A DNA stretch of 64,000 nt from Nitrospiraceae bacterium. GTDB lineage: Bacteria; Nitrospirota; Nitrospiria; Nitrospirales; Nitrospiraceae. The DNA is taken from assembly GCA_919902505.1 (NCBI GenBank), contig CAKKRE010000028.1, positions 10,530-74,529 on the forward strand, given 5' to 3'. The notes below the pieces were generated by a model that saw nothing but the letters and a program-made list of their open reading frames with translations, did not search any database and was not told the DNA's origin. Positions 7,811 to 31,334 of the stretch are shown here, in pieces; the stretch's first letter is position 1; every line of letters begins with the position of its first letter. The position numbers and the translations under genes are program-made.

Positions 7811-7866
7811 GAAGCGTGAGCCCTGAAGTGTCTCTCGTGAAACGTGAAGATGGCGGAGGACGTCGA

Positions 7867-9315
7867 ATGAGAACAGACAGAGGATGGGTGTCGGTCCTGG
7901 CGATGGTCTTGGCGATCGTCCTGCAGGCGACGGTGGGCTGGGCGGCGGACCTGACGTCGAACGATCCTCGCACAATGCGGTTTCCAACGGTGGAGTTTAA
8001 CCCGCCGGATGCGGAGCGTGTGGTGCTGGACAACGGCATGGTGGTCTATCTACTCGAAGATCACGAACTCCCGTTGGTAACCATCAACGCCACGCTCAGA
8101 ACCGGCAGCTGGCTGGACCCGGCGGACAAGGTTGGACTGGCGGGCATGACCGGGGCGGTGATGCGCACGGGTGGTTCGGCCGGAATGTCGCCCGATGAAG
8201 TCGATGAAGAGCTCGAACAATTGGCTGCGTCGATGTCGATCGGATTTGCGAAAGAGTCCGGGTCGGCGTCTCTCGATGTACTGAAGAAAGATCTGAAGCG
8301 CGGGCTGCAGATTTTCGCCGATCTGTTGCGACGGCCGGCGTTCGAGCAGAGCCGGGTGGAGTTGGCGAAATTGCAGGCGCTGGAAGGCATCAGGCGGCGG
8401 CAGGACAGTCCCGGCTCGATCGTCGGGCGGGAATTTGCCAAGCTGCTCTACGGCCCGACTCATCCGAGCGCCCGTGAAACGTCGGTTCGTTCGATCGATG
8501 GGATCACCCGTGAAGATCTGGTGGCGTTTCATCGACAGACCGTGCATCCCAACGGCATCATCCTCGGCGTGACCGGCGATTTCGAGAAGGCCGACATGCT
8601 GGCTCTGTTGCGTGATGCGTTCGGCGATTGGGCCAAAGGCAGCGTGCCCCCAGTGACGATTCCCGCGGTGTCCGGGACCGATGCCAACACCGGCCTCGTG
8701 CGGTTCGTGAACAAAGACACGTCGCAGACGCACCTGCGGGTGGGGCATCTGACCATCAAGGAGACCGACCCCGACTATGTGGCGGTCGCGATTGCCAATG
8801 ACATTCTGGGCGGCAGTTCGTTCCGCAGCCGGCTCTTCAACGACGTGCGGACGCAGCGCGGCCTGGCCTATTCCGTCGGCAGCGGTCTTCGGGCCAGTGT
8901 GTACGATGAAGGCGTCTGGCTGATGCGTGCCGAAACCAAGCTGTCCTCGACTCAAGAGGTGGTGAATCGCTTCGTGGCCAACATGGAACGGATGCGCAAT
9001 GAACCGGTGACCGACACCGAATTGGAAGAAGCGAAGGAAGCCTATGTGAACTCGTTTGTGTTCTCGTTCACCAGCGCGTCGAGTATTGTGGGGCGCTTGA
9101 TGGATCTTGAATACGACGGGTTGCCGAAAGATTGGCTGCAGCAGATCCGCGACAGGGTAGTGAAGCTGACGAAAGAGGATATTCAACGGGCGGCGAAGGC
9201 CCATTTTAATCCCGAGCGGTTGCGGATTTTGGCCGTCGGGTCCGGCGAGGCCCTGTCGAAAGTGCTGGGCAGTTTCGGCGAGGTGAAGGAAATTACGCTG
9301 GTACCGGAGAGTTGA
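7867..9315 (+). CDS. M16 peptidase-like non-catalytic partner subunit
   Basis: M16 fold motifs (ILGGSSFRSRLFNDVRTQRGLAYSV) with no HxxEH; tandem with the catalytic subunit. Confidence 0.88.
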   Translation: MRTDRGWVSVLAMVLAIVLQATVGWAADLTSNDPRTMRFPTVEFNPPDAERVVLDNGMVVYLLEDHELPLVTINATLRTGSWLDPADKVGLAGMTGAVMRTGGSAGMSPDEVDEELEQLAASMSIGFAKESGSASLDVLKKDLKRGLQIFADLLRRPAFEQSRVELAKLQALEGIRRRQDSPGSIVGREFAKLLYGPTHPSARETSVRSIDGITREDLVAFHRQTVHPNGIILGVTGDFEKADMLALLRDAFGDWAKGSVPPVTIPAVSGTDANTGLVRFVNKDTSQTHLRVGHLTIKETDPDYVAVAIANDILGGSSFRSRLFNDVRTQRGLAYSVGSGLRASVYDEGVWLMRAETKLSSTQEVVNRFVANMERMRNEPVTDTELEEAKEAYVNSFVFSFTSASSIVGRLMDLEYDGLPKDWLQQIRDRVVKLTKEDIQRAAKAHFNPERLRILAVGSGEALSKVLGSFGEVKEITLVPES

Positions 9316-9318
9316 GGG

Positions 9319-9412
9319 GCAGGCAGATCGAGTGGCTCTTTGCTCGCGCAGCGCGCGGCCTATGAAGGCCCTCGTTGGACGCGCGTAGTCAGAGCCACCA
9401 CGACCTGCCTGC
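9319..9412. repeat. Intergenic palindromic element
   Basis: Imperfect arms gcaggcagatcgagtggctct (9319-9339) / agagccaccacgacctgcctgc (9391-9412) enclosing GC-rich inner stems, directly after a stop codon. Confidence 0.6.
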
Positions 9413-9640
9413 TGGAGTGGCGAGGTGTAAGACGGTGTTCGTTCGACGCCTGCCTCGAAGTCTCAGGGGTGGTGGTCGGAAGCGTTGAATCTAGGAGCCT
9501 GTCCGACATTAGGAAACACGAAAATTTCGACGCGCACATTTGGCTCAGGATCAACGATCTCGCTTCGGTCAATATGATTTCATCCCCCCAAATCGGTCCT
9601 TTTCGGCAATGTCGGACAGGCTCCTAGGCCGGAGATTCCC

Positions 9641-10477
9641 ATGCCTCTTGAAGACGAACTCAGCGACATTTTGAAGAAGGCTCGCATGGGGCAGCAGCGC
9701 TTGGTGGCCGATGTGGCGCGTGTGAGTGGCTTGTCTGAAGTCGAAGTGAGTGAGCTAGAGCGGGGGCAATCGCCACGGAGTCGCGAACAGGTCCAGGCTG
9801 TTGCCAAGGCGCTTGGGCTGAGGGCGGAACCGCTGGCGCAGGTGGTGGATGGTTGGACCCCTGAGGCGTTCCCTTCGTCTCTGCCACATGTGGAGACCGT
9901 GTTTGGGTCGATCGGCGGGTATGAGGTCAAGGGCTATGTCGTACATGATCGAGGAGAAGCCGTCGTCATCGATACGGCCTACAACGCAAGCGGGCTGCTG
10001 GCGGTTCTCGTCGGGCGGAATCTGCGCCTGCGGGCGATTTGTCTGACGCATGGTCACTCCGATCATGCCGAGGGAATTGAGGCGATCCTGAAGGCCCACC
10101 CGGTGCCGGTCTATCTTGGTCCTGACGATTTGGATCTCCTCGGTTGGTGCCCGCCACAGGAGCTGTTACACGTGCCGCAGCGTGGCGAGACGCTGCAAGT
10201 CGGCGGGCTGACCCTGCGTTTTATGCCCACACCGGGCCATACGCCGGGTGGAATCTGTTATCGCATTGAGCAGGCCGGTGCTCCGATCTGTTTTGTGGGT
10301 GATACGCTGTTTGCCGGCTCCATCGGTCGCTCCAATCCAGCCGGGCTCTACCAGACTCATCTGCAATCGGTTCGCGAGCGGGTGCTCACGCTTGCTCCTG
10401 ACACATTGCTGTTTCCCGGGCATGGACCGGCCACGACAGTTCGTGAAGAATTGCTCCACAATCCGTTCTACTCCTAG
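9641..10477 (+). CDS. XRE-type HTH fused to a metallo-beta-lactamase-fold hydrolase (glyoxalase II-like)
   Basis: N-terminal HTH (LKKARMGQQRLVADVARVSGLSEVEVSELERG); THGHSDH, TPGHTPG, GDTLF and PGHG motifs. Confidence 0.9.
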   Translation: MPLEDELSDILKKARMGQQRLVADVARVSGLSEVEVSELERGQSPRSREQVQAVAKALGLRAEPLAQVVDGWTPEAFPSSLPHVETVFGSIGGYEVKGYVVHDRGEAVVIDTAYNASGLLAVLVGRNLRLRAICLTHGHSDHAEGIEAILKAHPVPVYLGPDDLDLLGWCPPQELLHVPQRGETLQVGGLTLRFMPTPGHTPGGICYRIEQAGAPICFVGDTLFAGSIGRSNPAGLYQTHLQSVRERVLTLAPDTLLFPGHGPATTVREELLHNPFYS

Positions 10478-10492
10478 GGCTGGAGGCCTGGC

Positions 10493-11449
10493 ATGAACCG
10501 TGACGACTCGGAGCAGCCGCGGCCTCCTGACGAACCGATTCCCCTCTCGTCCGAGGAGAACGACGAGGACGAGTGGGAGGAGGAACGTCCGCGGTTCTCT
10601 GCATGGATGCTTCCGGCGCTCTTGTTCCTGCTCACCGTGTTTACCGTCCTCTGGGCCGGGGCCTACCAAACCAACACGAATCCACTCGTCGGCCCGTGGA
10701 ACTTTCTCGTCGATGACCCCGGCTCGTTGTGGCGGGGTGTTCCGTTTGCCGCCACTCTGCTGGGCATCCTGGTGACGCATGAGCTCGGTCACTATGTGTT
10801 GTCGCGCATTCATGGCGTGCCGACATCGTTGCCGCTCTTCGTGCCGGGGTTGCCGCATTTCGTCGGCACGTTCGGCGCCATCATCCGCATGCGGGCGCCG
10901 TTGACAGATCGCCGGGCCCTGTTCGATATCGGCGTAGCGGGGCCGATTGCCGGGTTTGTGGTGGCGGTGATCGCGCTGGTGATCGGCCTCCGGCTTTCGA
11001 CGGTGGTGCCGATTCAAACCAGTTATGGCATGCATCTCGGCGAGCCGCTCCTCCTTCAGTTCGCATCGTGGGTGGTGATCGGTCCGCTTTCTCCCACCGC
11101 AGATGTGATACTTCATCCGATTGGGTTTGCCGCCTGGTTCGGGCTCTTCATCACGTCGCTCAACCTGCTTCCGCTCGGTCAGCTCGACGGGGGCCACGTC
11201 GCCTATGCGTTATTGGGAGAGCGGCAACGCAGCGTGGCGGTCGCCCTCGTGCCGATCCTCATGGTCTTCGGCTGGTTGGGCTGGAAGGGTTGGTTCTTGT
11301 GGGTGGGGCTTGCCGGCATGATGGGACTGGCCCATCCACCGGTGCAGAATCCCCATCGTGAACTAGGGGGAATCCGTGTGCTGGTGGGTTGGATTGCTCT
11401 GGCGATCTTTGTCCTGACTTTCTCCTGGGAGCCGTTTATTTTGCGGTAG
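10493..11449 (+). CDS. Site-2 protease (peptidase M50)
   Basis: HELGH in a transmembrane context, GVAGP, NLLPLGQLDGG; acidic N-terminal tail. Confidence 0.93.
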   Translation: MNRDDSEQPRPPDEPIPLSSEENDEDEWEEERPRFSAWMLPALLFLLTVFTVLWAGAYQTNTNPLVGPWNFLVDDPGSLWRGVPFAATLLGILVTHELGHYVLSRIHGVPTSLPLFVPGLPHFVGTFGAIIRMRAPLTDRRALFDIGVAGPIAGFVVAVIALVIGLRLSTVVPIQTSYGMHLGEPLLLQFASWVVIGPLSPTADVILHPIGFAAWFGLFITSLNLLPLGQLDGGHVAYALLGERQRSVAVALVPILMVFGWLGWKGWFLWVGLAGMMGLAHPPVQNPHRELGGIRVLVGWIALAIFVLTFSWEPFILR

Positions 11450-11452
11450 CCG

Positions 11453-12199
11453 ATGCAGTGCCAAAAATGCGGATGGGAACAGGGCGACGAACAGGTTGAG
11501 TGTGCTCGATGCGGAGTGATTTTCGCGAAGCTCGTCAAAGCGTCACGGCCCGGTTCAATCGCTAGGCCGCGTCCACTGGTTCAGGACTCGGCCTGGTTCA
11601 GACTCGCCGGGGACTGGCTGCTCACGACGGAGGAGTCCGTCAATCCGTTCCACTTCGCCGGGCGGGTGCTGGTGTTTTTCGTGCTCGTCCTGTGGGGCTG
11701 GCGCTTCATGACCACGCCGCTCGACACGAACTATACGGGCGAATCGTTTTTGCATTTGGTCAATCTGCCGTTCCATGAAGCGGGTCATCTGCTCTTCATG
11801 CCCTTCGGGCGATTCATGACGATCCTCGGTGGCAGTCTCGGACAGATCCTCATGCCGCTGGTGTGCCTGGGCACCTTTCTCCTCAAGACCCGCGATCCGT
11901 TCGGTGGATCAGTCGCCCTGTGGTGGACGGCCGAGAACTTCATGGACGTCGCGCCCTACATCAACGATGCCCGCGCGATGGATCTCCTGCTGCTCGGTGG
12001 GTTCACCGGCAAGGAAGTCGATGCGCACGACTGGAACAATCTCCTCACCATGCTCGGCTGGTTGCAGTATGACCATGGTCTGGCGAAGCTGTCGTACGGC
12101 ATCGGGACGGTGTCGATGCTGCTTGCGCTCGCCTGGGGCGCGATACTCCTGCATCGACAATACCGGCTAGCCACTCGCGTCCTCCCGCGCCCTCCTTGA
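11453..12199 (+). CDS. Zinc-ribbon membrane protein with an HExxH motif (M50B-like)
   Basis: CQKC..CARC at the N-terminus; FHEAGH in a hydrophobic helix; several TM segments. Confidence 0.75.
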   Translation: MQCQKCGWEQGDEQVECARCGVIFAKLVKASRPGSIARPRPLVQDSAWFRLAGDWLLTTEESVNPFHFAGRVLVFFVLVLWGWRFMTTPLDTNYTGESFLHLVNLPFHEAGHLLFMPFGRFMTILGGSLGQILMPLVCLGTFLLKTRDPFGGSVALWWTAENFMDVAPYINDARAMDLLLLGGFTGKEVDAHDWNNLLTMLGWLQYDHGLAKLSYGIGTVSMLLALAWGAILLHRQYRLATRVLPRPP

Positions 12200-12232
12200 A
12201 AAGATCCGGCACATCGGGCAGACTGCCGGACT

Positions 12233-12715
12233 ATGCGTACCTTGGCGTCGCTCTGCCGCATCGCTGCAGTTCCGATCTTGCTTGGCGTCGGTCTCATGGC
12301 GGGTCAGGTCCATGCCGACGAGGGCGCGTCGCGGTTCGTCTTGATGCTGGACGGCGAAGCGGTGAAAGATTCGGCGAGTGGGCTGGTGTGGGAGCGCGAA
12401 CCGGATTACCTGTTTGACGTATGGGATCGCTCAGTCGCCCGATGCGCCACGAAAACCGTCGGCGGGCAGCAGGGCTGGCGCGCCCCGAGCATCGACGAAA
12501 TCAAAACGCTGGTCGATCCCGAGCAGCAAGATCCTTCGTTGCCCGCGGGGCACCCATTTCGCAATATCCGCTCCGGCATCTACTGGACGGCCACAGCCCA
12601 TCCCAAGGATGACATCGTGGCCTGGCAACAAAGTTTCTTCTCCGGACAGGCTGTGACCGATCAGAAATCCGGCATGCGTCGTCTCTGGTGTGTGCTGGGT
12701 GACGCGCGCAAGTAA
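12233..12715 (+). CDS. Exported DUF1566 (Lcl C-terminal) domain protein
   Basis: Signal peptide; VKDSASGLVWE, GWRAPSIDEIKTL, YWTAT and RLWCV pattern. Confidence 0.85.
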   Translation: MRTLASLCRIAAVPILLGVGLMAGQVHADEGASRFVLMLDGEAVKDSASGLVWEREPDYLFDVWDRSVARCATKTVGGQQGWRAPSIDEIKTLVDPEQQDPSLPAGHPFRNIRSGIYWTATAHPKDDIVAWQQSFFSGQAVTDQKSGMRRLWCVLGDARK

Positions 12716-13052
12716 CCGGTCCGATATCGCCGAGGGCCACTTCCCCTGCCCTCGCGCGATCCACTTTGCCTGAAAAGTTCTCCATTCTTGGATCCAGGAG
12801 ATACTGTTCGGCTGCACGTACTTATTTCCCCGCCTGGGAAAGGTGGTCGCTGTTATCCCGAATTACGGATTCGTGTCGCCGGAACGATTGCTGACTTGCG
12901 TGTTCCGGAATCATCCTCGATCCGCACGTGCGACCACCTCGGCGGGTGCATAGGGCGGCCCCTTCCGGCCCAAAATATCGAAACCGGTGTCGTACGTTGG
13001 TTGTGAAGTGAGGTGGTTCACGGTCGGGATGCCAATCCTGATATCCGTTCGT

Positions 13053-13067
13053 GTGCAATTTTTGCAG
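13053..13067. promoter_or_regulatory. Candidate enhancer-binding-protein site TGCA-N5-TGCA
   Basis: gTGCAattttTGCAg, about 120 bp upstream of the -24 element at 13175; same motif as 18637 and 18681. Confidence 0.55.
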
Positions 13068-13173
13068 CACGATATCCTGGATCTCCGCAGGATCAGTGCG
13101 ACGGCGATGCAATCGAGCCATCTTAACTGTCCAATTGCTTATAGATCCAATAGATTTCCTAACCTGGACAGTA

Positions 13174-13189
13174 AGGCATACGAGTTGCT
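13174..13189 (+). promoter_or_regulatory. Sigma-54 (-24/-12) promoter candidate
   Basis: AGGCATACGAGTTGCT: GG-N10-GC with GGCA and TTGCT; 65 bp upstream of the ORF at 13254. Confidence 0.65.
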
Positions 13190-13253
13190 TAGGTCAGCAG
13201 CGGAATAGTCGCATCCTTTAAATATGAGCGGATCGGAATAGGAATGTGAAGTT

Positions 13254-13442
13254 ATGGAACCGACGGATCATCCTTGTGAGCGGTGTGCTCGAACCGACGG
13301 GCGGCTCATTTTCGACCAGTGGAGCAAACTGCTGCTCTGCGAAAATTGCTTCGAGCGCATGAGGCGGCAGCAGGCATGGTCTCTTCTGCGTGAGGCTGAG
13401 ATGCCTGAGGGGACAAGCTGGGTCATCCCCAGGCATGAATGA
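13254..13442 (+). CDS. Small Cys4 zinc-finger protein (copy 1)
   Basis: CERC-x17-CENC; paralog immediately downstream. Confidence 0.65.
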   Translation: MEPTDHPCERCARTDGRLIFDQWSKLLLCENCFERMRRQQAWSLLREAEMPEGTSWVIPRHE

Positions 13443-13454
13443 ACTAAGGAGGGA

Positions 13455-13649
13455 ATGAAAGTGGAGGAGTCTTCTGTGATCTCGAAAGATCGACAATCCG
13501 CCGCGATCATGCATTGCGAGCGCTGTGCCAGGCGCTCTGTCCAACTATGCTTCGACGACACCAGCCGGCAAGAGAGCTGCTCCGAATGCCTGAATCGTTT
13601 GACCACGCGAAGAGGATTTATCACCAGGCCGGCGAAGCCAAGGCAGTAA
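13455..13649 (+). CDS. Small Cys4 zinc-finger protein (copy 2)
   Basis: CERC-x17-CSEC; AAGGAGG RBS before the ATG; shares CERCAR and LxFD with copy 1. Confidence 0.65.
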   Translation: MKVEESSVISKDRQSAAIMHCERCARRSVQLCFDDTSRQESCSECLNRLTTRRGFITRPAKPRQ

Positions 13650-13756
13650 GGATCCCCCATGGCTCGCTCCTCTCTCCTGCTCGCGACGGGGCTGTCCCTC
13701 ATCACGCCGGACCTGTGCGGCGCGATCCGGGACGGCGTGCTCCCTGAGAGACTCTT

Positions 13757-15436
13757 ATGCCCGGTCGCTATTTAGAACTGAAGCCGGTTCGCAGCACCCT
13801 GTGGGGGGAGGTTTCCCGGCTTGCGCTGGTGATCGGCCTCGAACAGCGCGTCCTCATGCTTATCGTCTCCTACGCCTTGGCCATCGCTCTCTTCTCCCTG
13901 GTCGTTCCCCTGACCGTGCAGGAACTCGTCAGCACCTTTGCCTTTTCGATCGAGCCGGTCATGATTGTCACCCTCACGCTGATCATTCTGATCGGACTCC
14001 TCTTCATCGGTTTCTTCCGGGTCTTTCAGACGAGCGCGACGGAAATACTCTTTCAGCGGCTCTACACCCGTATTGCTATCGCCATGACGGAGCACCTGCC
14101 CCGGGTACGGGAAGAAGTGTTCGTGCCCAGCTACGCGAACTACTTTGGAGAAGCGGAATTATTGCCGCGCGCCGTGGTGGTCGTGCTGGTGGACCTGATC
14201 AATGTTTTCATCTCAGGTGCTACGGGGCTGGTGATTCTCGTCGTCTATCATCCGTATTTCCTTGTGTACGACGCCTTCCTGCTCGGTGGATTTGCGCTGG
14301 TGCAATTCACCTCCGGGCAAGGAGGGGTTCGAGCGACGCAGACGGTCTCACAACACCATTACGATCTCATGACCTGGATGCAGGATATCGCGCAGAATCG
14401 CCTTCATTTCAAGGCCACCCAGAGCGCCCCGTTACTGCTGAATAAAACCGACCGCTTGTTGGAGTCTTACCTTACGGCGCGAAGGGCTCGCTCAGGGGTA
14501 CTGACCTGGCGCCAGTACATCAGCACGGTGATCTGGGAGGCGATTTGCCATAGCGGCATGATCGGCATGGGCGGATGGCTGCTGTCGATCGGGCAGATCA
14601 CGCTCGGTCAGTTCGTCGCGGCCGAAGTCATCGTCGGCACGCTCCTTCTGAACCTCGATACGGTGACGCGTCGAATCTATGCCGTGACCTATATCGTGAC
14701 GTCTTTCGATGAGCTGACGCGGGTCTTCTCTCTTCCGAAAGATGATCTGAGGGAGGAGGCGTCATTCTCGCGGTTGCCCGATCCCGCCATCCACGGTCTT
14801 CATGTGACCTGCAAAGATGCGGGCTTTGCCTATCCCAACTCCCCACCGATCATTGAGGGATTCAATTTGGAGGTGGCTTCCGGGGAAAAGGTGGCGGTCA
14901 TTTCTCAAACCAGCACGGGCAAATCCACCCTCGCTCTCTTGCTGGCCGGTCTCTCTCGCCCGACCACCGGGGTGGTTCGATTCAACGATGTGGATTTGCG
15001 CGATATGACCATGGACGATATCAATGCCGCTCGAGCGCTGGTTCTCGATTCGCATCTGACGTTGTTCGGAGGGACGCTGGAGGAAAATATCTCACTCGGA
15101 CGGCCGTCGGTCCGGTTCGAAGACCTCCGCTGGGCGCTGAGGTTCGCGGAATTAGATGAGGACGCCGATAGATTGCCGCAGGGCCTGGAAACTCCGACTC
15201 TGGCAGGGGGGAAGCTCTTCACGAAGAGTCAGATTCTTCGCATTCTGGTCGCCCGCGCGATCGTCACGAGGCCGCAATTGCTCATCTTCGACGGGACGCT
15301 CCATAACATGGCGCCGGATCTGAGGCAGATTCTGCTGCGGCGACTCTGTTCAAAAGAGGAAGCGTGGTCGGTGATCTTCGTCACCAATGACCCTTCCATC
15401 GGAGAATATGTCGATCGCCGTGTCATGCTGGGGTGA
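13757..15436 (+). CDS. ABC exporter-type half transporter (TMD+NBD) with degenerate ATPase motifs
   Basis: Multi-TM N-terminal half with GQITLGQFVAAE; Walker A SQTSTGKST, signature FTKSQ, Walker B LLIFDG. Confidence 0.85.
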   Translation: MPGRYLELKPVRSTLWGEVSRLALVIGLEQRVLMLIVSYALAIALFSLVVPLTVQELVSTFAFSIEPVMIVTLTLIILIGLLFIGFFRVFQTSATEILFQRLYTRIAIAMTEHLPRVREEVFVPSYANYFGEAELLPRAVVVVLVDLINVFISGATGLVILVVYHPYFLVYDAFLLGGFALVQFTSGQGGVRATQTVSQHHYDLMTWMQDIAQNRLHFKATQSAPLLLNKTDRLLESYLTARRARSGVLTWRQYISTVIWEAICHSGMIGMGGWLLSIGQITLGQFVAAEVIVGTLLLNLDTVTRRIYAVTYIVTSFDELTRVFSLPKDDLREEASFSRLPDPAIHGLHVTCKDAGFAYPNSPPIIEGFNLEVASGEKVAVISQTSTGKSTLALLLAGLSRPTTGVVRFNDVDLRDMTMDDINAARALVLDSHLTLFGGTLEENISLGRPSVRFEDLRWALRFAELDEDADRLPQGLETPTLAGGKLFTKSQILRILVARAIVTRPQLLIFDGTLHNMAPDLRQILLRRLCSKEEAWSVIFVTNDPSIGEYVDRRVMLG

Positions 15437-15545
15437 GTGTAGGCGGGCGTTGGATGTGTCCCGGCACACAGAGCGTTCGGCTATACAGCCTCAGTCCTGC
15501 GTGGTAGCATGAAACCCTGCTCGAATCTTCCTGTAGGACGCAGGT

Positions 15546-16943
15546 ATGTTTAGACCTATTTCTGAAGCCGCTCTCCTCCGAAGGGCTCCCTATCGGTTGA
15601 TCGCGGCGGTGCTGTTGATTTTGGCCTTGGTCGTTTCCGTCATCCTGCTCTTCAGTTTGGAACAGGAGAAACTTCTCCTTCAGGGCGTTATTCAAGGCAA
15701 GACGGCTCCGACGGAGTTGTTTCCAGCGCTCTGGCAGTCGCGCCGCGACTTGACGCTGGTGGCGCTCCTCGTTTTTCTGGTGAGTGCGATCGGGATCACC
15801 GCGGTCATCACGTTTCTGCACTATGACAGCACCATACGAACCCTCGAAGAAGTGAAGGGGCTGGCGCGCAACATCCTCGAGAGCATTCCAACCGGTGTCC
15901 TGACGCTGAACCGCAGCGGCATGATTACGGCCGTCAATCCCTCGGCTGAGGCCGTGTTGAAACGTGCGTCGCTCGACTTGCTGGGCCACTCGTACGAATC
16001 CGTCTTTACGGAGGGCGATACCATCCGCGGGGCGCTTGATGCAGCGCTGCGGATCCATCGGCACATGAGTCAGAAAGACTTGCCCTATGAAAGCCGCGAT
16101 CGAACCCTGCACACCATCCGCGTCAGTACGGCCGAGTTGACCGGAGACGATGGACGGCCCGCCGGCGTCATTCTCCAGGCACAGGACGTCACGGAATGGC
16201 TGGCTCTTGAACGGAGAGTCCGGGTTGCGGAAAAACTGGCGGCTCTTCACACGCTATCCGCCGGGGTGGCGCACGAGTTGCGCAATCCGTTGAGCGCGAT
16301 CGATTTGAATTTGCATCTCCTTGAGGAAGAATTCAACGAGCAGGGGGGGGCGGCGAAGCAGGCCGCTCATTACCTCCGCGTGTTGAATGCCGAATGCCGC
16401 CGCCTGTCGGTGATTCTCGATAACTTCATGAAGTTCGCGCGACCCGGCTCCCTGGGTCTCCATGCGGTGGATTTGCCCGCCTTGATCGAACACATCGTGG
16501 CGCTCATGCGGTTCGAAGCGGAGGAGCGTAAGATTCAACTTGAGCCACGGGTGAGCAAGGACATGTCCCCGGTGCTGGGTGATGAGACGCAAATCAGCCA
16601 GGTCTTGGTGAACATCGTCGTCAACGCGTTCCATGCCATGCCGAATGGTGGGCGGTGCTGTATCGCTACGGAAGAACGCCCGGGGGAAGGGAAGCGCTGG
16701 GTAGAGATTGTCGTGAGCGACACGGGTATCGGTATTGAACAGGAAGACCTGCCGCGACTGTTTGAGCCCTTCTATACGACCAAGTCGGGTGGAACCGGGC
16801 TCGGCCTCGCGATCGCCTACCGGATTATGCAGGATCATGGCGGGACCATTCATGTGACAAGTGTGCCTGGAAACGGGACCCAGGTGGTCATGCAATTTCC
16901 TGTTGCTGTCGATCATCAGCAGGCGGTTGCGGTGGGATTATGA
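15546..16943 (+). CDS. Sensor histidine kinase (2 TM, PAS, HisKA, HATPase)
   Basis: H-box AHELRNPL, N-box NIVVNAFHAM, DTGIG, FEPFYTTK, GTGLGL; PAS starting at NILESIPTGV. Confidence 0.95.
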   Translation: MFRPISEAALLRRAPYRLIAAVLLILALVVSVILLFSLEQEKLLLQGVIQGKTAPTELFPALWQSRRDLTLVALLVFLVSAIGITAVITFLHYDSTIRTLEEVKGLARNILESIPTGVLTLNRSGMITAVNPSAEAVLKRASLDLLGHSYESVFTEGDTIRGALDAALRIHRHMSQKDLPYESRDRTLHTIRVSTAELTGDDGRPAGVILQAQDVTEWLALERRVRVAEKLAALHTLSAGVAHELRNPLSAIDLNLHLLEEEFNEQGGAAKQAAHYLRVLNAECRRLSVILDNFMKFARPGSLGLHAVDLPALIEHIVALMRFEAEERKIQLEPRVSKDMSPVLGDETQISQVLVNIVVNAFHAMPNGGRCCIATEERPGEGKRWVEIVVSDTGIGIEQEDLPRLFEPFYTTKSGGTGLGLAIAYRIMQDHGGTIHVTSVPGNGTQVVMQFPVAVDHQQAVAVGL

Positions 16944-18298
16944 CGCAAGGGGCGCATATTCTCGTCGTAGACGATGAGGTCAATATCCGGGGCGCGTTAG
17001 TGACGCTCCTTGAAAAGAAAGGCCACCATGTGCGCGGGGCAGGGACAGGAGAAGAAGCGCTGGAGGAGCTTGATGCCGCCGCGGCTGATCTGGTGATGAC
17101 CGACCTCAAGATGCCCGGGATCGGCGGAATGGAGTTCCTTCGTCGTCTGAAGGAGAAGTGGCCGGAGACGGAAGTCGTGGTCATGACGGCGTATGGATCG
17201 ATCGATACGGCAGTGGAGGCCATGCGATGCGGCGCGTACGACTATCTCACCAAACCCATCGATCGCGAGCGGTTTCCCATCGTGGTCGAGAAAGCGCTGG
17301 ATCGCCATGCGCTGGCGACGGAGAACAAACAGCTCAGGAGCCGCCTGGACACACGCACACGCTTCGATCAGATGGTCGGTGACAGCGAGCCGATGCGGCA
17401 CGTTTACAACATGGTTGAGATGGTGGCCGAGAGCGATGTCACGGTGTTACTGACGGGGGAAAGCGGTACCGGAAAGGAACTTGTCGCCCGGGCGATCCAT
17501 CATAGGAGTGCCCGGGCGAATGGACCGTTTGTCACGCTGAACTGCGGAGCGTTACCAGAGAACCTGTTTGAAAGTGAACTGTTCGGCTACGACAAAGGGG
17601 CGTTTACCGGAGCGATGACCACGAAGCTGGGGCGATTCGAACTCGCCCATGAGGGAACGCTGCTTCTGGATGAAGTCGGCGAACTATCGTTAAAATCGCA
17701 GGTGGATTTCCTTCGTGTCTTGGAGACGAAGGAATTCAGACGCCTGGGCGGAACCAAAGTGATCAAGGTTGATACCAGGATCATTGCCGCCACGAATCGC
17801 AATCTCGAAGCAGCCGTCAAGCAGGGTGACTTTCGCGAAGACCTCTACTATCGATTGAACGTCGTCCCGATCCACCTCCCGCCGCTGCGCGAGCGTGCGG
17901 AAGATATCCCGCTGCTCGTGAACCGGTTTCTGATCGCCTTCTCGACCCAGTATCGCCGCGAGCCAAAGGAGGTGTCACGCGACGCCATGCGGTTGCTCCG
18001 CCTCTATGCCTGGCCCGGGAATATTCGCCAGCTCCGAAATCTCATGGAGCGGCTGGTGGTGACCGTGAAGGATGCAACCATTCAATCGGAACACCTCCCC
18101 GGGGACATTCAGGCCAGCAAGGAGGATGCTCGCACGATGCTCGTGACGCTGGGGACGCCCCTGGAACAGATCGAACGGGATGTCATCCAACGGACATTGG
18201 CCGAAGTGACGAATCATCGAGAGAAAGCGGCCAAACTCCTCGGCATCAGCCTCCGTGCATTGCAGTATAAAATCAAGGAGTACGGCATCCGCGAATAA
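16940..18298 (+). CDS. Sigma-54-dependent response regulator (NtrC/AtoC family)
   Basis: REC domain (VVDDE, TDLKMP), GESGTGKE, ELFG..GAFTGA, C-terminal Fis-type HTH; 4-nt overlap with the kinase. Confidence 0.96.
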   Translation: MTQGAHILVVDDEVNIRGALVTLLEKKGHHVRGAGTGEEALEELDAAAADLVMTDLKMPGIGGMEFLRRLKEKWPETEVVVMTAYGSIDTAVEAMRCGAYDYLTKPIDRERFPIVVEKALDRHALATENKQLRSRLDTRTRFDQMVGDSEPMRHVYNMVEMVAESDVTVLLTGESGTGKELVARAIHHRSARANGPFVTLNCGALPENLFESELFGYDKGAFTGAMTTKLGRFELAHEGTLLLDEVGELSLKSQVDFLRVLETKEFRRLGGTKVIKVDTRIIAATNRNLEAAVKQGDFREDLYYRLNVVPIHLPPLRERAEDIPLLVNRFLIAFSTQYRREPKEVSRDAMRLLRLYAWPGNIRQLRNLMERLVVTVKDATIQSEHLPGDIQASKEDARTMLVTLGTPLEQIERDVIQRTLAEVTNHREKAAKLLGISLRALQYKIKEYGIRE

Positions 18299-18636: not shown

Positions 18637-18695
18637 CTGCAAGAAATGCAGTCGTCGAATCGCTGAAAATCGGAATCTCGCTGCAGAATTTGCAG
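18637..18695. promoter_or_regulatory. Tandem palindromic enhancer sites CTGCA-N5-TGCAG
   Basis: ctgcaagaaatgcag (18637-18651) and ctgcagaatttgcag (18681-18695), 44 bp apart, about 110-155 bp upstream of the -24 element. Confidence 0.7.
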
Positions 18696-18790: not shown

Positions 18791-18806
18791 TGGCATTCCC
18801 CCTGCA
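18791..18806 (+). promoter_or_regulatory. Sigma-54 (-24/-12) promoter
   Basis: TGGCATTCCCCCTGCA: GG-N10-GC; downstream of a sigma-54 activator gene and of the tandem palindromes. Confidence 0.7.
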
Positions 18807-18971: not shown

Positions 18972-19661
18972 ATGGAGTCAATGGGAAAGATGACGTTGGA
19001 ACGAGTAATCGATGTGGGCCCTGCCGGTTTTCATCCTCCATCGGCGATGGAACTGGGTGTCACACATCCTGATTCTGGATCCGGACTGCTCTATGGCCGC
19101 CATGCCCAGCAAGATGAGGTGATCGCAGAGTCCGCAAGGCAATTGTTCACCAGGAAGAATCCGACGATCTTCCCGGGGCCGTTGTACTTATGGGCCTGGC
19201 ATCCGGAATGGATCGCCAAGGGACACGCTCTGTTGAGGCTTGCCGCCGAGATCCCCGGAGTCATGATCATTCCGATGCCGGACTATCGACCTAAGTATCC
19301 AAAAATCGATCCAGAAGAGGTCATCAATCCGAATCATCCGAACCTGACGATTTGGGGAAACAAGATCGAGGTGGCTCTGTTCATCGGCATTCACTGTCAC
19401 TACGCCAACCTGGCGCTACGCATGGTGCGGGCGGGAACGAATTGCCTCACCGTGGCCTTCTGCCACGACATCCATGAAGACGCCATGCTCAGTGTGCAGG
19501 ATCTCGATGTGAAGCAGATGGATCACATCATTGATATTTTTCGAACGGTTCGGAAGGAACTCGGAATCGAGATGCCGAAAAACGGGCAGACCGTCCGTTT
19601 GACCGAGACGCAGATGCGCGCAAACCATGGGGTCGAGCGAGTGAATCCATGGCCAGCCTGA
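18972..19661 (+). CDS. CO_dh/ACDS-epsilon family protein, ForD/PorD-like subunit of five-subunit 2-oxoacid:ferredoxin oxidoreductase (copy 1)
   Basis: KNPTIFPGPL.LWAW, PDYRPKYPKI, INPNHPNLTI, GIHCH; paralog at 22185; family assignment is from recall, not a search. Confidence 0.7.
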   Translation: MESMGKMTLERVIDVGPAGFHPPSAMELGVTHPDSGSGLLYGRHAQQDEVIAESARQLFTRKNPTIFPGPLYLWAWHPEWIAKGHALLRLAAEIPGVMIIPMPDYRPKYPKIDPEEVINPNHPNLTIWGNKIEVALFIGIHCHYANLALRMVRAGTNCLTVAFCHDIHEDAMLSVQDLDVKQMDHIIDIFRTVRKELGIEMPKNGQTVRLTETQMRANHGVERVNPWPA

Positions 19662-19718
19662 TGGGGAGTGTCAGACTTAGGCGGAAAGGCAGCGAGCCAA
19701 CAGTGCAGGAATCCGAGC

Positions 19719-20009
19719 ATGCCGATGAACATTGAGAATCCTGAGAAACCACCCGCGCTTAGGCACTATGTACCAAGCGAGGAATGGATTGCGCGAATCA
19801 GTCGCCTGCAAGATACGCTGACCGTGTGCCCAGCGGATATTCCGGCACGGTGCGAATTAGCAACGCTCCTGGAAAAGCTGGAGCAACCGGAAGAGGCCTT
19901 GGTTCATTGGCAAGTCGTGCTTGCCTGCGATCCCAACAGTCTCAACGCGCGTGAAGGAGTGGCTCGCTGTCGTCTTCAGGCAGGCCGTCCGCTACAGTCC
20001 CGTACGTGA
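19719..20009 (+). CDS. Small TPR-like protein
   Basis: ARCELATLLEKLEQPEEALVHWQVVLACDPNSLNAREGVARC fits a TPR helix pair. Confidence 0.6.
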   Translation: MPMNIENPEKPPALRHYVPSEEWIARISRLQDTLTVCPADIPARCELATLLEKLEQPEEALVHWQVVLACDPNSLNAREGVARCRLQAGRPLQSRT

Positions 20010-20427
20010 GAGTGCGCATGCCTACTCTCTGGGGTTGTTTCGATCAAGTCGAAACAAGCCTTCCGGGGACTTGTTGGATCCTGCTCAGGTCTCTGTTGCT
20101 CGGGGCACGGCGATCCCATCCGGGCCTATCTCGGAGAGCAGGCCCTCATCGCGAGAGGACCGGAACGGGTAGAGCTTTCACGCGTGAAGGTGGGGGAATT
20201 TGTAGAAGTCACCTATCACCGGGGGCACGCTGGTTTTCATGGAGGCCGACACCATTGATGTCCGTCCCGACTAGGACGTTGCGCCCGAAGAAAGTGAGGA
20301 AGGCTAAGTTTGGGTTTGCGAGCGCCAAGACACATGGGAGGCCGGCACGATGAGACGACAAGGAAATCGAGGCCAACAGCGGTCTGGGGAACGCGACGTA
20401 CGCAGTCAAACAGGGAGACGTAAGCAT

Positions 20428-20706
20428 ATGGTGAAGGACAGGAACATCGTGGTTGTGCGGTATCCACGAGGTGCGACCGCTCTCATCTGGCTTGATCCGG
20501 CCAGTCGAGCGGTTGTAACCAGCCATGCCGGGTTGAGTGCTCTGCTTCACCAGGGAGTGAGGGACTGGGGCGGCCGCCTGGTATTTCCCGAAAGCGGCCA
20601 AGACTTCTTAAGGGCGGTTTATGATCGCCTCTTCATCAATGGCTGCGCCGTCCAATGGATGAGTGCGTCGGCTACCGTCGATGTTCAACGAAGTTACCGT
20701 GTCTAG
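20428..20706 (+). CDS. Hypothetical protein
   Basis: ATG after a GGGAG-like RBS; protein-like composition; in line with the operon. Confidence 0.55.
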   Translation: MVKDRNIVVVRYPRGATALIWLDPASRAVVTSHAGLSALLHQGVRDWGGRLVFPESGQDFLRAVYDRLFINGCAVQWMSASATVDVQRSYRV

Positions 20707-20722
20707 CGCGGATCAAGTCGAT

Positions 20723-22159
20723 ATGGCTCCCTTCACATCCTGGCTTCCTTCTCCTTCCACGCAAGACTTCGATCTGGTCGTCAAAGTTGCAGGATCGGGT
20801 GCGTCACCGCTCCATCAGGATTGGCTGCCTCTTGCGCATATCCTGATCGATCATGGATTGACGGTGATGGCCCAACATCAGCGTCTGAACGGCCACTCCG
20901 GCGACTTTGTGCTGCATCTTCGCATGGCCGTTCAACCATTCCATTCAATGGGACATGGATGCGACGTCCTCGTCCACGTGGGGGACCATGCGCCGGAATT
21001 TTGGCGCTTCGATCTCCAGCCAGGAAGCGTGCTTCTCTGGGAACCTCCAGTGGAACGACCGCTCTATCCCGTCGTTCCCGAGGGAGTGATTACGTACCCG
21101 CTGCCTCTTTCGGATCTCTCTGCCCCTTACGGCGAGGGGGTGTCCGGAAAGGGACTCGCCGCGCTGGGAGTTCTGTTGTGCTTGCTCGGATGCCCTCAGG
21201 AGACTCTTCATCGTGTCGCCCGGCTGTTGGCGGCGCCAAGATCGTTCGCCGCCGGAATTGAATTCGCCCACTATGAGATTGCGAAACGCGATGCGTATTG
21301 TCTTCCGCTTTCCGCAGACGACCGTGGCCAAGGTCGGATCCTGCTGGCACCGGAACAGGCGACGATGCTCGGGTTCGCCATCAGTTTCTGCGAATGCGGA
21401 ACGGGTTGTGATCGTGAGTTGCTCCAGTCACCGGCAGAGTGGATGCGCAGACACCTGGGGATTGCCGGGGGCATGGTATCGGTGCTGCAGAGCGAGAGGC
21501 ACCCCGATGTGCAAGTGTTTCGAGGACCTCAAGAAAAGGTGGTGGCCCTCTTGGGTGGGGATGACCGCGCGATAATGTCCTGCCTTGCCGGGTCGCGAAT
21601 CCTCGTGGCCGCCGACGTCATGGATGTCGTGAAGCTCTTGATTGAGGCCCACGATCTGATCCGAAAAGGACTGAGCGGGAGCGTCGTGGTCTTGGTCGAT
21701 GACGTCGTCGCCAGGCGCCATCAAAGCGTCGATCTCAGTGCCTTGATCGAGATGGTCCGGCCGAGAGGGGCTGATGTACGAGGTGCGATCATGACAGTTC
21801 AATCCGATTTGCCGGTTAGGCCGGCTGATCGGGACCAAGAGGCTGGGGCGGACGTGGGCTTTTTCTCCTGGGGGGCAGATCAAGGGGTAGTTCGAGACGC
21901 AGTGGGGCTCTGTCGACAATTTGGCCTCAACGTAGCTGGCTTGTATCCGAAAGTCGTTGTGCCGCTGCCGCAAGCGGAATTGGAGATGTTTGCCAGAACC
22001 GTCAAGCGCATGGTCCTGGTCGAATCGAGCCGGAGGCATGGGTATGCTGAGCGGATACGGGCGGCATGCTCGTTCCGGCCTACGGTACTCACATCGCTGC
22101 CCGGAAAGTCGCTCACACCGATGGATATTTTTCTTCGAGAAGGGTTGGGGGCCGTATGA
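20723..22159 (+). CDS. Degenerate KorA-type 2-oxoacid:ferredoxin oxidoreductase alpha(+gamma)-like protein
   Basis: Gamma-like N-terminus (LVVKVAGSG..GCDVLV) and PFOR-II C-terminus (ADVGFFSWGADQGVVRDAV..VVPLP..VLVE); YPITP, EDEIAA and TSGPG are absent. Confidence 0.7.
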   Translation: MAPFTSWLPSPSTQDFDLVVKVAGSGASPLHQDWLPLAHILIDHGLTVMAQHQRLNGHSGDFVLHLRMAVQPFHSMGHGCDVLVHVGDHAPEFWRFDLQPGSVLLWEPPVERPLYPVVPEGVITYPLPLSDLSAPYGEGVSGKGLAALGVLLCLLGCPQETLHRVARLLAAPRSFAAGIEFAHYEIAKRDAYCLPLSADDRGQGRILLAPEQATMLGFAISFCECGTGCDRELLQSPAEWMRRHLGIAGGMVSVLQSERHPDVQVFRGPQEKVVALLGGDDRAIMSCLAGSRILVAADVMDVVKLLIEAHDLIRKGLSGSVVVLVDDVVARRHQSVDLSALIEMVRPRGADVRGAIMTVQSDLPVRPADRDQEAGADVGFFSWGADQGVVRDAVGLCRQFGLNVAGLYPKVVVPLPQAELEMFARTVKRMVLVESSRRHGYAERIRAACSFRPTVLTSLPGKSLTPMDIFLREGLGAV

Positions 22160-22184
22160 ACCACGATGGAAAGGAGTTGAAGTG

Positions 22185-22763
22185 ATGGAACCGTACGAGA
22201 TGACCATTGGACCTGAAGGGTATCTGCCTCCGTCTGTTTCCGAAAGGGGCGTCGTTGGTCCCTCGAAGGGGGAGGGGCTTGTCATGGGAAAACGGGTGCC
22301 GGAGCAGCAGGCGATCGATGAAGTGGCGCGCCGACTACTTGCGGCCAAGAACCCCACGATCTTCCCGGGTCCGTTGGTTCTTTGGGCCTGGAATGAACAG
22401 GCGATGCGCGAGTCCAAAGTGGTCAAAGCGTTGGCGGAAGCGGTTCCGGCGAAGCTTATCCCGATGGCCGATTACCGGCCGAAGTATCCGAAGATCGAGG
22501 CGGAGCGGGAGATCAATCCGAACCATCCGAATCTGACGATCTGGAAAAACAAGATCGATGTCTGCTTATTTGTGGGTGTACATTGTCATCAATCCAATAT
22601 TGCGCTGAAGATCATTCGTGGCGGCACGGACTGCTACACCATCGCGCTCTGCACCTTTAGCGGCGACGATGAGGCGCACATCACGATCAGGGACTTGACC
22701 GTTGATACCATTCAGCGCATTGTGGATTCAGTCCATCGGCAGAAAAATTCACGGTCCTCATAG
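22185..22763 (+). CDS. CO_dh-family ForD/PorD-like protein (copy 2)
   Basis: AAGGAG RBS at 22171; GPEGYLPPS, KNPTIFPGPLVLWAW, DYRPKYPKI, INPNHPNLTIW, GVHCH. Confidence 0.72.
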   Translation: MEPYEMTIGPEGYLPPSVSERGVVGPSKGEGLVMGKRVPEQQAIDEVARRLLAAKNPTIFPGPLVLWAWNEQAMRESKVVKALAEAVPAKLIPMADYRPKYPKIEAEREINPNHPNLTIWKNKIDVCLFVGVHCHQSNIALKIIRGGTDCYTIALCTFSGDDEAHITIRDLTVDTIQRIVDSVHRQKNSRSS

Positions 22764-22815
22764 GGACGCTGGAGGATTGTCTCTGATGGCTACCTTCGTC
22801 AAGAGAGGATATGTC

Positions 22816-23745
22816 ATGCGATATGTACTTGCCGCAATTGTCGGGGTGATGGTTGCAATGGGCTCATCCGCCTGGGCCTATGAGGAAATCACGGTTGCAG
22901 AGGGTGGGACCCTGAGGGGCATCGTAACGCTCGAAGGGACTGTCCCCAAGCCGAAAGGGTACAACCTCACGACCTTGCCGGACCAATTCTATTGCGGGCG
23001 CATTTCGGACGGACAAGGCTGGCGCATTTTGCAGCCGTTCCAGGTCGGACCGGCGAGCGAGTTTCGCGACGTCGTGGTCTATCTGGAAGGCATCGACAAG
23101 GGCAAACCCTTCCCTGAAGGGGGCGTGCCGCACATCGAAGCGAAAGACTGCCTGTTCGAACCGTTCACCACCATCGTGCGGGACGATCAATCGGTGACGG
23201 TGGTCAACATGGACCCCGTCATGCACGACATTCAAGCCTATGAAACGTCGCATTTGGGCGCGCGCGTGTTGTTCAACGTGCCGCTGCCGATGAATCCGCA
23301 GCATCCGCGCAACCTCAAGGATCGCAGCGATGCCGGGATGTATCACAAACACATGGCCGGCCCGCCGATGAAGCAATTGGTGAATCTCAGCAAGGGCCGG
23401 CGGATTTTCGTCATGCAATGCGGCTTCCACGCGTACATGGAGAGCTGGGGGGTGGCCGTCACCAACCCGTACTTTGCCAAGACGGACGAGCAGGGCCGGT
23501 TCACCCTGACCGATGTGCCGGCGGGTACCTATAAGCTGGTCGTCTGGCACCCCTATGTCCGTACCGCGACCGAACAGACCGTCACGATCGGCCCGAAAGG
23601 GACGGTGGAGGCCCATGTCGTGGTCCCGGCCCCGATCGGGCGGCTCTATGCCAACGAGGTGATGGAGCATCCGTACAATCGCTACAACGTGCTCGAAGAA
23701 ACAAAGCGAGAAATCGATCCGATGATCCACAAGCAGGAGCATTGA
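22816..23745 (+). CDS. Exported protein with cupredoxin-like and carboxypeptidase-regulatory-like domains
   Basis: Signal peptide; MHDIQ and CGFHAYM; C-terminal TDEQGRFTLTDVPAGTYKLVVWHPY. Confidence 0.75.
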   Translation: MRYVLAAIVGVMVAMGSSAWAYEEITVAEGGTLRGIVTLEGTVPKPKGYNLTTLPDQFYCGRISDGQGWRILQPFQVGPASEFRDVVVYLEGIDKGKPFPEGGVPHIEAKDCLFEPFTTIVRDDQSVTVVNMDPVMHDIQAYETSHLGARVLFNVPLPMNPQHPRNLKDRSDAGMYHKHMAGPPMKQLVNLSKGRRIFVMQCGFHAYMESWGVAVTNPYFAKTDEQGRFTLTDVPAGTYKLVVWHPYVRTATEQTVTIGPKGTVEAHVVVPAPIGRLYANEVMEHPYNRYNVLEETKREIDPMIHKQEH

Positions 23746-24371
23746 AGCGGGAGTGAGAGGGTGTGAAGCGCCTAATACTATCTCGTGGAGCAGGATTGCT
23801 GATAAGCGATGCGTGTGTGGTGTAGGCGAGGATCTCGAGAGAGGGAGCTTGTCAAAACCAGAAACTGCGAATCGCCAGATCGATGGGTTAGCCATTCTGC
23901 TGCATTGAGCTTCCTCCATGCCGTCATTACACTGACCTTTTCTCCAGCGTCTGCATGCGGCTGAATCTGACATCTGAAATGTTGCCGGAACTGGCCCATC
24001 TAACGGTCGGAATCCTCGCCTTGTATCATCCAATCGGTAGTCTCTTGCAGGCCTATACCGGCAAGGCGATTGTGCCACTGGTGCCGTCCCCTTTTCCGTC
24101 ATGAAAAGAGCATGAGGGGGCCGGTTCGATTGGAGCCGGCATGGTCCCACGGGGGAACCTGAGTTTGCATGAAATGGTTGCATGGGTTCTGCTCTATGTC
24201 CGTTGTGCACGGTCGCTTTTCGGATAGCAGTTGATGTGTCACACCGTATGTTTTAAGGTTCCTGGAGGCTGTCAAGATTCTCCGGTTCACATCTCGAAGA
24301 CCAGGGGGGAGTGATAGAATGCATTCTGTGTCTGGTTGTGGAGGGGCCTCCTTGAGGTTCTTGCTGCAACG

Positions 24372-26399: not shown

Positions 26400-26463
26400 G
26401 GCGAGGCAGCGGGCTGTGCGTAGGGGTTGTGCCTGGTCGTTCGATCACTGAGTGACGGGAGCT

Positions 26464-27420: not shown

Positions 27421-27424
27421 CGCG

Positions 27425-28090: not shown

Positions 28091-28127
28091 GGCGGTCGAT
28101 GACGCATGTCCGGCGAGTAGGTGCTGT

Positions 28128-29660: not shown

Positions 29661-29664
29661 CCGT

Positions 29665-31257: not shown

Positions 31258-31334
31258 GAAACAGGCATTCAGCAATCCGCCCTCAGCAGCCGGCTCTGAG
31301 CTGAGAACTGATCGCTGATGGCTAAGGAGGCGCC

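Follow-up and report, generated by a model that had tools for sequence, protein, structure and literature searches.

The genome of a Nitrospiraceae bacterium (GenBank assembly GCA_919902505.1) encodes an exporter-type half transporter of the ATP-binding cassette (ABC) superfamily, hereafter ABCw, whose nucleotide-binding domain (NBD) is degenerate and whose gene precedes those of a histidine kinase and an NtrC/AtoC-type sigma-54 activator. We analysed this arrangement within a stretch of 64,000 nucleotides (nt) from contig CAKKRE010000028.1 (positions 10,530 to 74,529; the window in the following). We regard ABCw as a conserved pseudo-ATPase with the exporter fold and, on balance, most likely as an output of the kinase-regulator system, produced along with the gene cluster downstream of the regulator. 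The initial annotation of the locus had proposed that an inactive exporter might serve as the sensory input of this two-component system. The tie between the two stands, through adjacency in all 35 testable genomes and a predicted sigma-54 promoter and enhancer, but the need for ABCw as sensory input does not: ABCw is a probable target of the two-component system, and the sequence evidence does not make it the sensor. Apparently, ABCw is an orphan, sigma-54-controlled member of an undescribed family of dead-ATPase ABC proteins.

The positions of the NBD motifs (Table 1) were set by residue-by-residue alignment to the NBDs of P-glycoprotein, which bore out the substitutions already read in the initial annotation. 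The Walker A motif is S-QTST-GKST as compared to G-SSGC-GKST, with just the G-K-S-T end retained, the signature LSGGQ is replaced by FTKSQ, and Walker B reads LLIFDG versus LLLDEA, with a glycine at the position of the catalytic glutamate. Likewise, the D-loop SALD has become LHNM and the Q-loop glutamine a histidine. With its hydrolysis motifs lost, the NBD is, judging from these residues, almost certainly not a hydrolase, and in this respect the earlier assessment holds. The genome, a Nitrospira, is closely related to Ca. Nitrospira defluvii, whose ABCw ortholog is 96% identical.

Domain models recognise the protein poorly. Pfam returned a weak ABC_tran match (46.7 bits, cut-off 25) and no ABC_membrane match, and every NCBIfam exporter model scored far under its cut-off, the best being TIGR03796 (148.7 versus 853.3 bits); the top models were those of NHLP bacteriocin exporters (TIGR03796/03797), CydC and type I secretion ABCs (TIGR03375, TIGR01846). 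An AlphaFold2 model built from 64 family sequences (predicted local distance difference test, pLDDT, 81; predicted template-modelling score, pTM, 0.76) comprises a whole exporter of six transmembrane (TM) helices plus NBD. Its top Foldseek matches are the PCAT1 core, TM287/288, HlyB, IrtAB, ComA and PrtD at 16-21% identity, and the full-length ones among them (PCAT1, TM287/288, HlyB, PrtD) reach E values of about 1e-20. Sequence and model agree that membrane domain and NBD are fused in one half transporter, which has six TM helices, short loops on the periplasmic side and a type IV exporter fold; the BceB/FtsX fold is not the one found. Thus type I secretion systems (T1SS) of the HlyB-HlyD-TolC type and the PCAT/NHLP exporters (PCAT1, ComA, PrtD) provide the top matches of ABCw in sequence and fold, and its paralogs in the core operon described below are likewise encoded with HlyD and TolC homologues. 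Unlike these systems, however, ABCw scores under the cut-offs, has no C39 or C39-like domain, has lost all ATPase motifs, and has no adaptor, outer-membrane factor or cargo gene adjoining it. The lack of HlyD, TolC or a partner half transporter nearby, as initially annotated, was confirmed: HlyD, OEP or a second half transporter were not found among the window's open reading frames (ORFs) scanned (6.2-27.6 kb), and tblastn of the window's contig gave no other copy of the ABC, HlyD or OEP. By fold and ancestry ABCw is a T1SS/PCAT-like ABC, without that family's catalytic motifs or curated scores.

The degenerate NBD is not peculiar to ABCw. By tblastn the same genome holds three paralogs, namely a tandem pair on contig C50 (60% and 54% identity; the two genes are at C50:12654-14279 and C50:14468-16033) and a copy on contig C36 (48%), which are as degenerate in their motifs as ABCw, with Walker A endings SK, AK or QK. 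A partner half transporter, which the initial annotation considered might be encoded elsewhere, thus has candidates, but all of them are equally degenerate. A scan of GTDB genomes gave 327 relatives, and the 78 loci retained are nearly all from Nitrospiraceae/Nitrospirota assemblies. In 116 of the 116 family proteins taken from the retained loci, single-copy core operons included, the catalytic Glu, the H-loop His, LSGGQ and the P-loop glycines are absent, while the Walker A Lys is retained and the family has patterns of its own, hhhh[D/E/N]G and SNDP. ABCw shares the family invariants (VP[LI][TA]VQELV, [YF]HP[YF]F, hhhh[DEN]G and SNDP). Among the best 120 of 1,435 homologues in a collection of 5.8 billion proteins, each source name given was Nitrospira or Nitrospirae, and an exhaustive profile search of 1.8 billion representatives yielded about six family clusters (851-385 bits), followed by a sharp fall to 367 bits, where the first non-family matches, T1SS/PCAT-like ABCs of about 720 amino acids (aa), set in. 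The family appears confined to Nitrospiraceae/Nitrospirota assemblies, and our literature searches did not find it described. The nearest outgroup ABCs (P0130-P0182; about 720 aa, with an N-terminal extension) retain Walker A, but here and there among them the Glu of Walker B (DG, DH, DQ, DS, DN), the signature or the H-loop His has gone, a pattern that suggests recurrent erosion of the ATPase site in the wider clade around them.

In a maximum-likelihood tree the family is set on a long stem relative to the outgroup (1.43 substitutions per site). The ABCw clade is nested within the family as sister to the second subunit of tandem core operons (support 1.0), on a stem of 0.26 versus 0.07 for the sister clade. 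Its position marks ABCw as a lineage-specific duplicate of the second core subunit; the degeneracy of the NBD is family-wide and older than the ABCw copy. There is no support here for an ATPase that died in order to provide sensory input, or that is required for it, in that the degeneracy predates ABCw and the core members belong to HlyD-TolC operons.

Indeed, about 73 of the 78 retained loci represent one conserved operon, the core operon, which sits between purE and a pseudouridine synthase gene and encodes HlyD, an OEP/TolC protein, one or two ABCs of the family and a two-TM four-helix-bundle (4HB) protein. Many genomes have a single ABC in it, so that the inner-membrane component there is without any consensus ATP site. 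In the window's genome the core operon (L001, G000 contig C50:4001-24000) occupies 7789-15300 on the minus strand, its products being HlyD (484 aa), OEP/TolC (505 aa), two dead-ATPase ABCs from tandem genes (555 and 558 aa) and a 4HB_MCP-like protein of 254 aa with two TM helices. The genome has one HlyD/OEP pair of this type, found by tblastn with the paralogs on C50, and every checked ABCw-bearing genome also keeps a core copy. The fourth and more divergent dead-ATPase protein (L002, G000 contig C36:83001-103000, at 9010-10704 on the minus strand) is an orphan adjoining a GT2 glycosyltransferase and a PMT/ArnT-like glycosyltransferase.

Degenerate sites are no bar to ATP-driven transport as such: in TM287/288, TmrAB, TAP and CFTR one site is degenerate and one consensus site still hydrolyses ATP (PMC7756269). 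ABCw resembles these well-known heterodimers in its type IV exporter fold and non-consensus NBD motifs, and the core operon has tandem paralogous subunits. Since the genome also contains other ABC exporters (C37, C78, C16, C10), ABCw might still be driven by ATP if it paired with a canonical half transporter from another locus, the heterodimer keeping one consensus site. However, ABCw has lost its signature half as well as its Walker A/B/H-loop half and would therefore cripple both composite sites of any dimer, and as all four paralogs have lost both halves, no consensus site can form among them. We consider this explanation very improbable. A canonical partner subunit was rejected as unlikely after tblastn had given the degenerate paralogs and distant exporters, the latter only about 25% identical to ABCw.

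The conservation of ABCw looks like that of a protein in use. The ratio of non-synonymous to synonymous substitution rates (dN/dS) is 0.11-0.15 for the whole protein, 0.08-0.15 for its transmembrane domain (TMD) and 0.08-0.19 for the NBD, values comparable to those of the neighbouring kinase, and ABCw is under purifying selection. At sites conserved in both groups, just three clade-specific changes, all conservative, separate ABCw from the rest of the family; neofunctionalisation was rejected on this ground. Purifying selection and the fewness of these changes together make ABCw look like a working protein, doing what its core paralogs do. The opposite reading, a decaying passenger gene of no present function that is retained through a conserved operon, would fit the presence of ABCw in only 36 of 371 Nitrospiraceae genomes (8 of 39 genera) and the existence of damaged copies, signs that the gene is still being lost, namely in-frame stops in two genomes (TGA in G047:C134:3141-4793, TAA in G192:C100:9028-10656), a copy matching residues 1-350 only (G005:C74:14011-15066) and a deletion scar in G083. 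Yet the frame is intact in 33 of the 36 genomes at protein identities down to 66%, all family-invariant residues are kept, and dN/dS is low in both domains; a mere passenger seems hardly credible to us.

The evidence for control of the ABCw gene by the two-component system lies in a conserved predicted sigma-54 promoter and enhancer upstream of it, of the same type as at the presumed downstream target of the regulator. A promoter of the form rGGCAY-N5-TTGCT is found upstream of ABCw in 14 of 15 ABC-bearing loci, and in 12 of these 15 loci the palindrome TGCAA-N3-TTGCA precedes the promoter by 95-135 nt; in L094 just 139 nt separate the sigma-54 motif from the start of the ABC gene, and no zinc-ribbon ORF intervenes. 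Many loci, whether they have ABCw or not, share the architecture behind the regulator, in which palindromes are paired at about -160 and -120. On both strands of the 4.24-Mb genome only two enhancer-promoter pairs occur, against a chance expectation of about one, and both flank this two-component system; the core HlyD-TolC operon is not among the matches of this genome-wide pattern. As both transcription units have the same enhancer and promoter architecture, the adjacent activator would drive both, and ABCw would be an output. A generic scan for sigma-70 promoters and terminators gave nothing above shuffled sequences.

Several points weigh against reading ABCw as an output. The promoters and enhancers are predicted, and sigma-54-like matches across the window number 28 as against 27.6 expected, i.e. 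chance level. What speaks for the sites is where they lie, the enhancer paired with them and their conservation among genomes, and only enhancer-paired, conserved sites were retained. With the pattern used, the enhancer-promoter pair is absent in three ABC-bearing loci (L095, L099, L100). Among the many sigma-54 activators of the genome, it is by proximity alone that we infer the adjacent regulator to be the one that binds TGCAA-N3-TTGCA. The strict adjacency of ABCw and kinase would also be expected from a physical partnership, and being a target may, by analogy with Bce transporters, which are both target and co-sensor, be compatible with a co-sensor role. Finally, Lys-Ser/Thr of Walker A and Asp of Walker B are still present in the NBD, and ABCw may bind nucleotide without hydrolysing it.

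In the main alternative, the ATP-dead ABCw would contact the short-loop kinase in the membrane and relay its own conformational or substrate-bound state as sensory or feedback input. In each of the 35 genomes that allow the test, from 8 genera, the ABCw gene immediately precedes that of the orthologous kinase, on the same strand and with a spacer of mostly 100-115 nt, and the synteny that the initial annotation had named as a check is thus real. TM1 (about residues 16-36) and TM2 (about 69-91) of the kinase are separated by a short and conserved loop of about 31 residues (about 30 by the earlier estimate). The core-operon ABC likewise precedes a two-TM, sensor-like 4HB protein. Moreover, ABCw apparently belongs to the same regulon, a feature found also in Bce-type modules (PMC3023708, PMC10314905).

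By contrast, the distribution of the kinase argues against any requirement for ABCw. Kinase orthologs (61-97% identity) occur in 47 of 121 sampled genomes, and in about 30 of these 47 ABCw is missing while the kinase, the regulator and the CO_dh/TPR block behind them are intact and the promoter and TM/loop sequences are the same. Protein-level ABC remnants were not found in the ABC-less loci. Of two congeners, L096 has ABCw and L084 lacks exactly 1.66 kb, a clean deletion that takes ABCw except its last 166 nt (remnant at 7726-7891) between flanks of 70-86% identity and leaves kinase and regulator intact. A comparison of 15 ABC-bearing and 10 ABC-less loci, covering TM helices, loop and full length of the kinase, showed its TM helices and loop to be equally conserved in both groups, with none of their residues tracking the presence of ABCw; co-adaptation of the kinase was rejected, as it differs by just two conservative I/V exchanges, both in the ATPase domain. 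Given the ABC-less orthologs, the kinase's own promoter, the L084 deletion and the lack of a tracking residue, the kinase appears to have no need of ABCw, and the claim of a required sensory input is not sustained. In addition, the kinase has a cytoplasmic PAS domain that can be its input, and the clade-specific changes of ABCw at conserved sites do not mark a new function. Adjacency, too, is weak evidence, since ABCw is enclosed between the small gene zn2 and the kinase inside a conserved block. One genome, G155, has two kinase orthologs (C123:2096-3475 and C172:26475-27854), just one of which adjoins ABCw. A co-sensor role is therefore possible and not required, and on the whole we hold it to be rather unlikely.

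The likeness to BceAB-BceRS, the antimicrobial-peptide sensing system of Firmicutes invoked in the initial annotation, is similarly limited. Here as there the transporter gene adjoins that of a kinase with a minimal extracytoplasmic loop and is probably under the control of the two-component system. There are differences, however. BceB is a 10-TM permease of the FtsX/MacB type with a large extracellular domain and a separate BceA ATPase, whereas ABCw is a fused half transporter; Bce signalling depends on ATP hydrolysis, whereas the NBD of ABCw is by all appearances dead; and BceS is without PAS and BceR of the OmpR type, whereas here a PAS kinase is combined with an NtrC-type sigma-54 activator. 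Furthermore, the kinase is widely found without the transporter, while ABCw always occurs with the kinase (35 of 35). PAS domain, exporter fold and dead NBD thus tell against Bce-like sensing. A particular form of the proposal, in which the system induces the ATP-dead exporter and the exporter, in direct contact with the short-loop kinase within the membrane, informs it of the state of the envelope or the substrate, strikes us as doubtful; if true, it would realise Bce-like logic from a different fold, independently of ATP, in a Gram-negative nitrite oxidiser.

An exporter membrane domain can work without ATP, as in SbmA/BacA, which have the ABC-exporter TMD fold without an NBD and are driven by proton-motive force, SbmA being an importer. 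In ABCw the ionisable residues E56, D146, H265 and E290 are invariant and H165 nearly so, and we infer that they are placed in or near the TM helices; conserved acidic residues in the TM region are shared with SbmA/BacA. ABCw might accordingly be a stand-alone homodimeric transporter or channel, ion-coupled or facilitative, which transports a substrate or cofactor required by the downstream cluster and has no link to HlyD-TolC or the kinase. The apparent co-regulation with that cluster and the lack of HlyD/OEP genes near ABCw would agree with this. Against it, the cluster is present without ABCw in most genomes, the core copy is kept in every checked ABCw-bearing genome, and the sister clade consists of second subunits from tandem pairs, which presumably form heterodimers; unlike SbmA, moreover, ABCw has an NBD, which is under purifying selection, and core paralogs encoded with HlyD and TolC. 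We assign this alternative a low probability.

Our preferred reading, ABCw as an output of the kinase-regulator system, can be put as follows. A duplicate of the second core subunit would have inserted between a small zinc-ribbon gene and the sigma-54 two-component pair and would be transcribed together with the small genes zn1 and zn2 from a sigma-54 promoter with a TGCAA-N3-TTGCA enhancer. The adjacent regulator would bind the enhancers and drive both zn1-zn2-ABCw and the downstream cluster, ABCw itself being an optional accessory. Like, presumably, its core paralogs, ABCw would function without hydrolysing ATP, perhaps as an ion-coupled or gated membrane conduit in which E56, D146, H265 and E290 (and H165) could serve ion coupling. 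Since it is derived from the second of two tandem subunits, ABCw may combine with a core subunit and employ the genome's single HlyD-TolC.

Table 1. Predicted genes, protein motifs and regulatory sites of the ABCw locus, in window coordinates
Feature	Position	Strand	Remarks
Palindromic enhancer-like site TGCAATTTTTGCA (TGCAA-N3-TTGCA)	13054-13066	.	120 nt upstream of the sigma-54 promoter
Sigma-54-type -24/-12 promoter AGGCATACGAGTTGCT	13174-13189	+	65 nt upstream of zn1
zn1, Cys4 (CxxC...CxxC) zinc-ribbon-like ORF	13254-13442	+	62 aa
zn2, Cys4 ORF	13455-13649	+	64 aa; motif CxRCxRR..L..DDL.LQELC..C
ABCw, half transporter of ABC-exporter fold with degenerate NBD	13757-15436	+	559 aa; TMD about 1-330, NBD about 345-559
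Degenerate Walker A SQTSTGKST	14903-14929	+	residues 383-391
FTKSQ in place of the LSGGQ signature	15218-15232	+	residues 488-492
Walker B LLIFDG	15278-15295	+	residues 508-513; catalytic Glu to Gly
H-loop Asn544 of ABCw	15386-15388	+	His to Asn
Sigma-70-like promoter of the kinase-regulator pair, TATACA-N17-TAGCAT	15482-15510	+	conserved with and without ABCw
Histidine kinase	15546-16943	+	TM, loop of about 31 aa, TM, PAS, HisKA, HATPase_c
NtrC/AtoC-type sigma-54 activator	16940-18298	+	REC, AAA+, HTH_8
Enhancer-like palindromes TGCAAGAAATGCA (18638-18650) and TGCAGAATTTGCA (18682-18694)	18638-18694	.	
Sigma-54-type promoter TGGCATTCCCCCTGCA	18791-18806	+	ahead of the CO_dh/Hyf-like cluster starting at 18972

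The kinase and the regulator have AtoS and AtoC/NtrC, respectively, as their top NCBIfam models, with all scores under the equivalog cut-offs. Like AtoSC, NtrBC and ZraSR, the pair is associated with TGCA-containing palindromes about 100-160 nt upstream of -24/-12 promoters; unlike them, it is predicted to act on the downstream CO_dh/Hyf-like cluster as well as on a pseudo-ABC and small zinc-ribbon ORFs. The sigma-70-like element of the pair is preceded by CGTG and was found upstream of the kinase in nearly all of 25 compared loci from many genera.

The two small ORFs zn1 and zn2 fill what had looked like a 1-kb "gap" upstream of ABCw; Pfam gave no significant family match for either. Relatives of zn1 were found by tblastn in ABC-bearing as well as ABC-less loci, and zn2, where present, is directly upstream of ABCw or, in ABC-less loci, directly upstream of the kinase. 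ORFs of about 60 aa with the same Cys4 arrangement (CxxC-N17-CxxC) occur in L081, L082, L084, L085, L090, L096, L097, L099 and L100, and some loci have extra zinc-ribbon copies between the regulator and the CO_dh genes (motif CPRC...LLFDS...MVC..CHE.L). Zinc-ribbon ORFs appear to be the most conserved sigma-54 targets of the kinase-regulator system. Their role as obligatory exporter cargo was rejected, for they are kept where ABCw is absent.

The downstream cluster (18972-31856) comprises two CO_dh (PF02552) paralogs, a TPR protein, a CarboxypepD_reg-like protein, a 498-aa protein with a C-terminus like the 2-oxoacid:acceptor oxidoreductase alpha subunit, and a hydrogenase-4-like membrane complex with HyfB/HyfF-like, NuoCD-like and NuoB-like subunits. 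Upstream, a same-strand run of genes (6245-12715) encodes two M16 peptidases, a 95-aa ORF, an HTH-metallo-beta-lactamase fusion, an M50 site-2-type protease, a 248-aa protein without known function and an Lcl_C-domain protein; it is conserved just in the closest relatives (L003, L004, L091, L092) and is outside the ABC-kinase block.

Conserved adjacency alone, as this locus illustrates, can overstate a co-sensor hypothesis. ABCw is apparently in one of two transcription units under a very specific sigma-54 enhancer, and because both units carry one enhancer type, the conditions under which ABCw and the CO_dh/Hyf-like cluster are expressed may be traced via a single regulator. More surprising than the orphan copy is the puzzle posed by the family, namely how its members, and with them the HlyD-TolC ducts that belong to the core copies, are energised or gated. 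In the textbook view an ABC exporter requires one functional ATP site or more, and here a whole family keeps the exporter fold under purifying selection without any.

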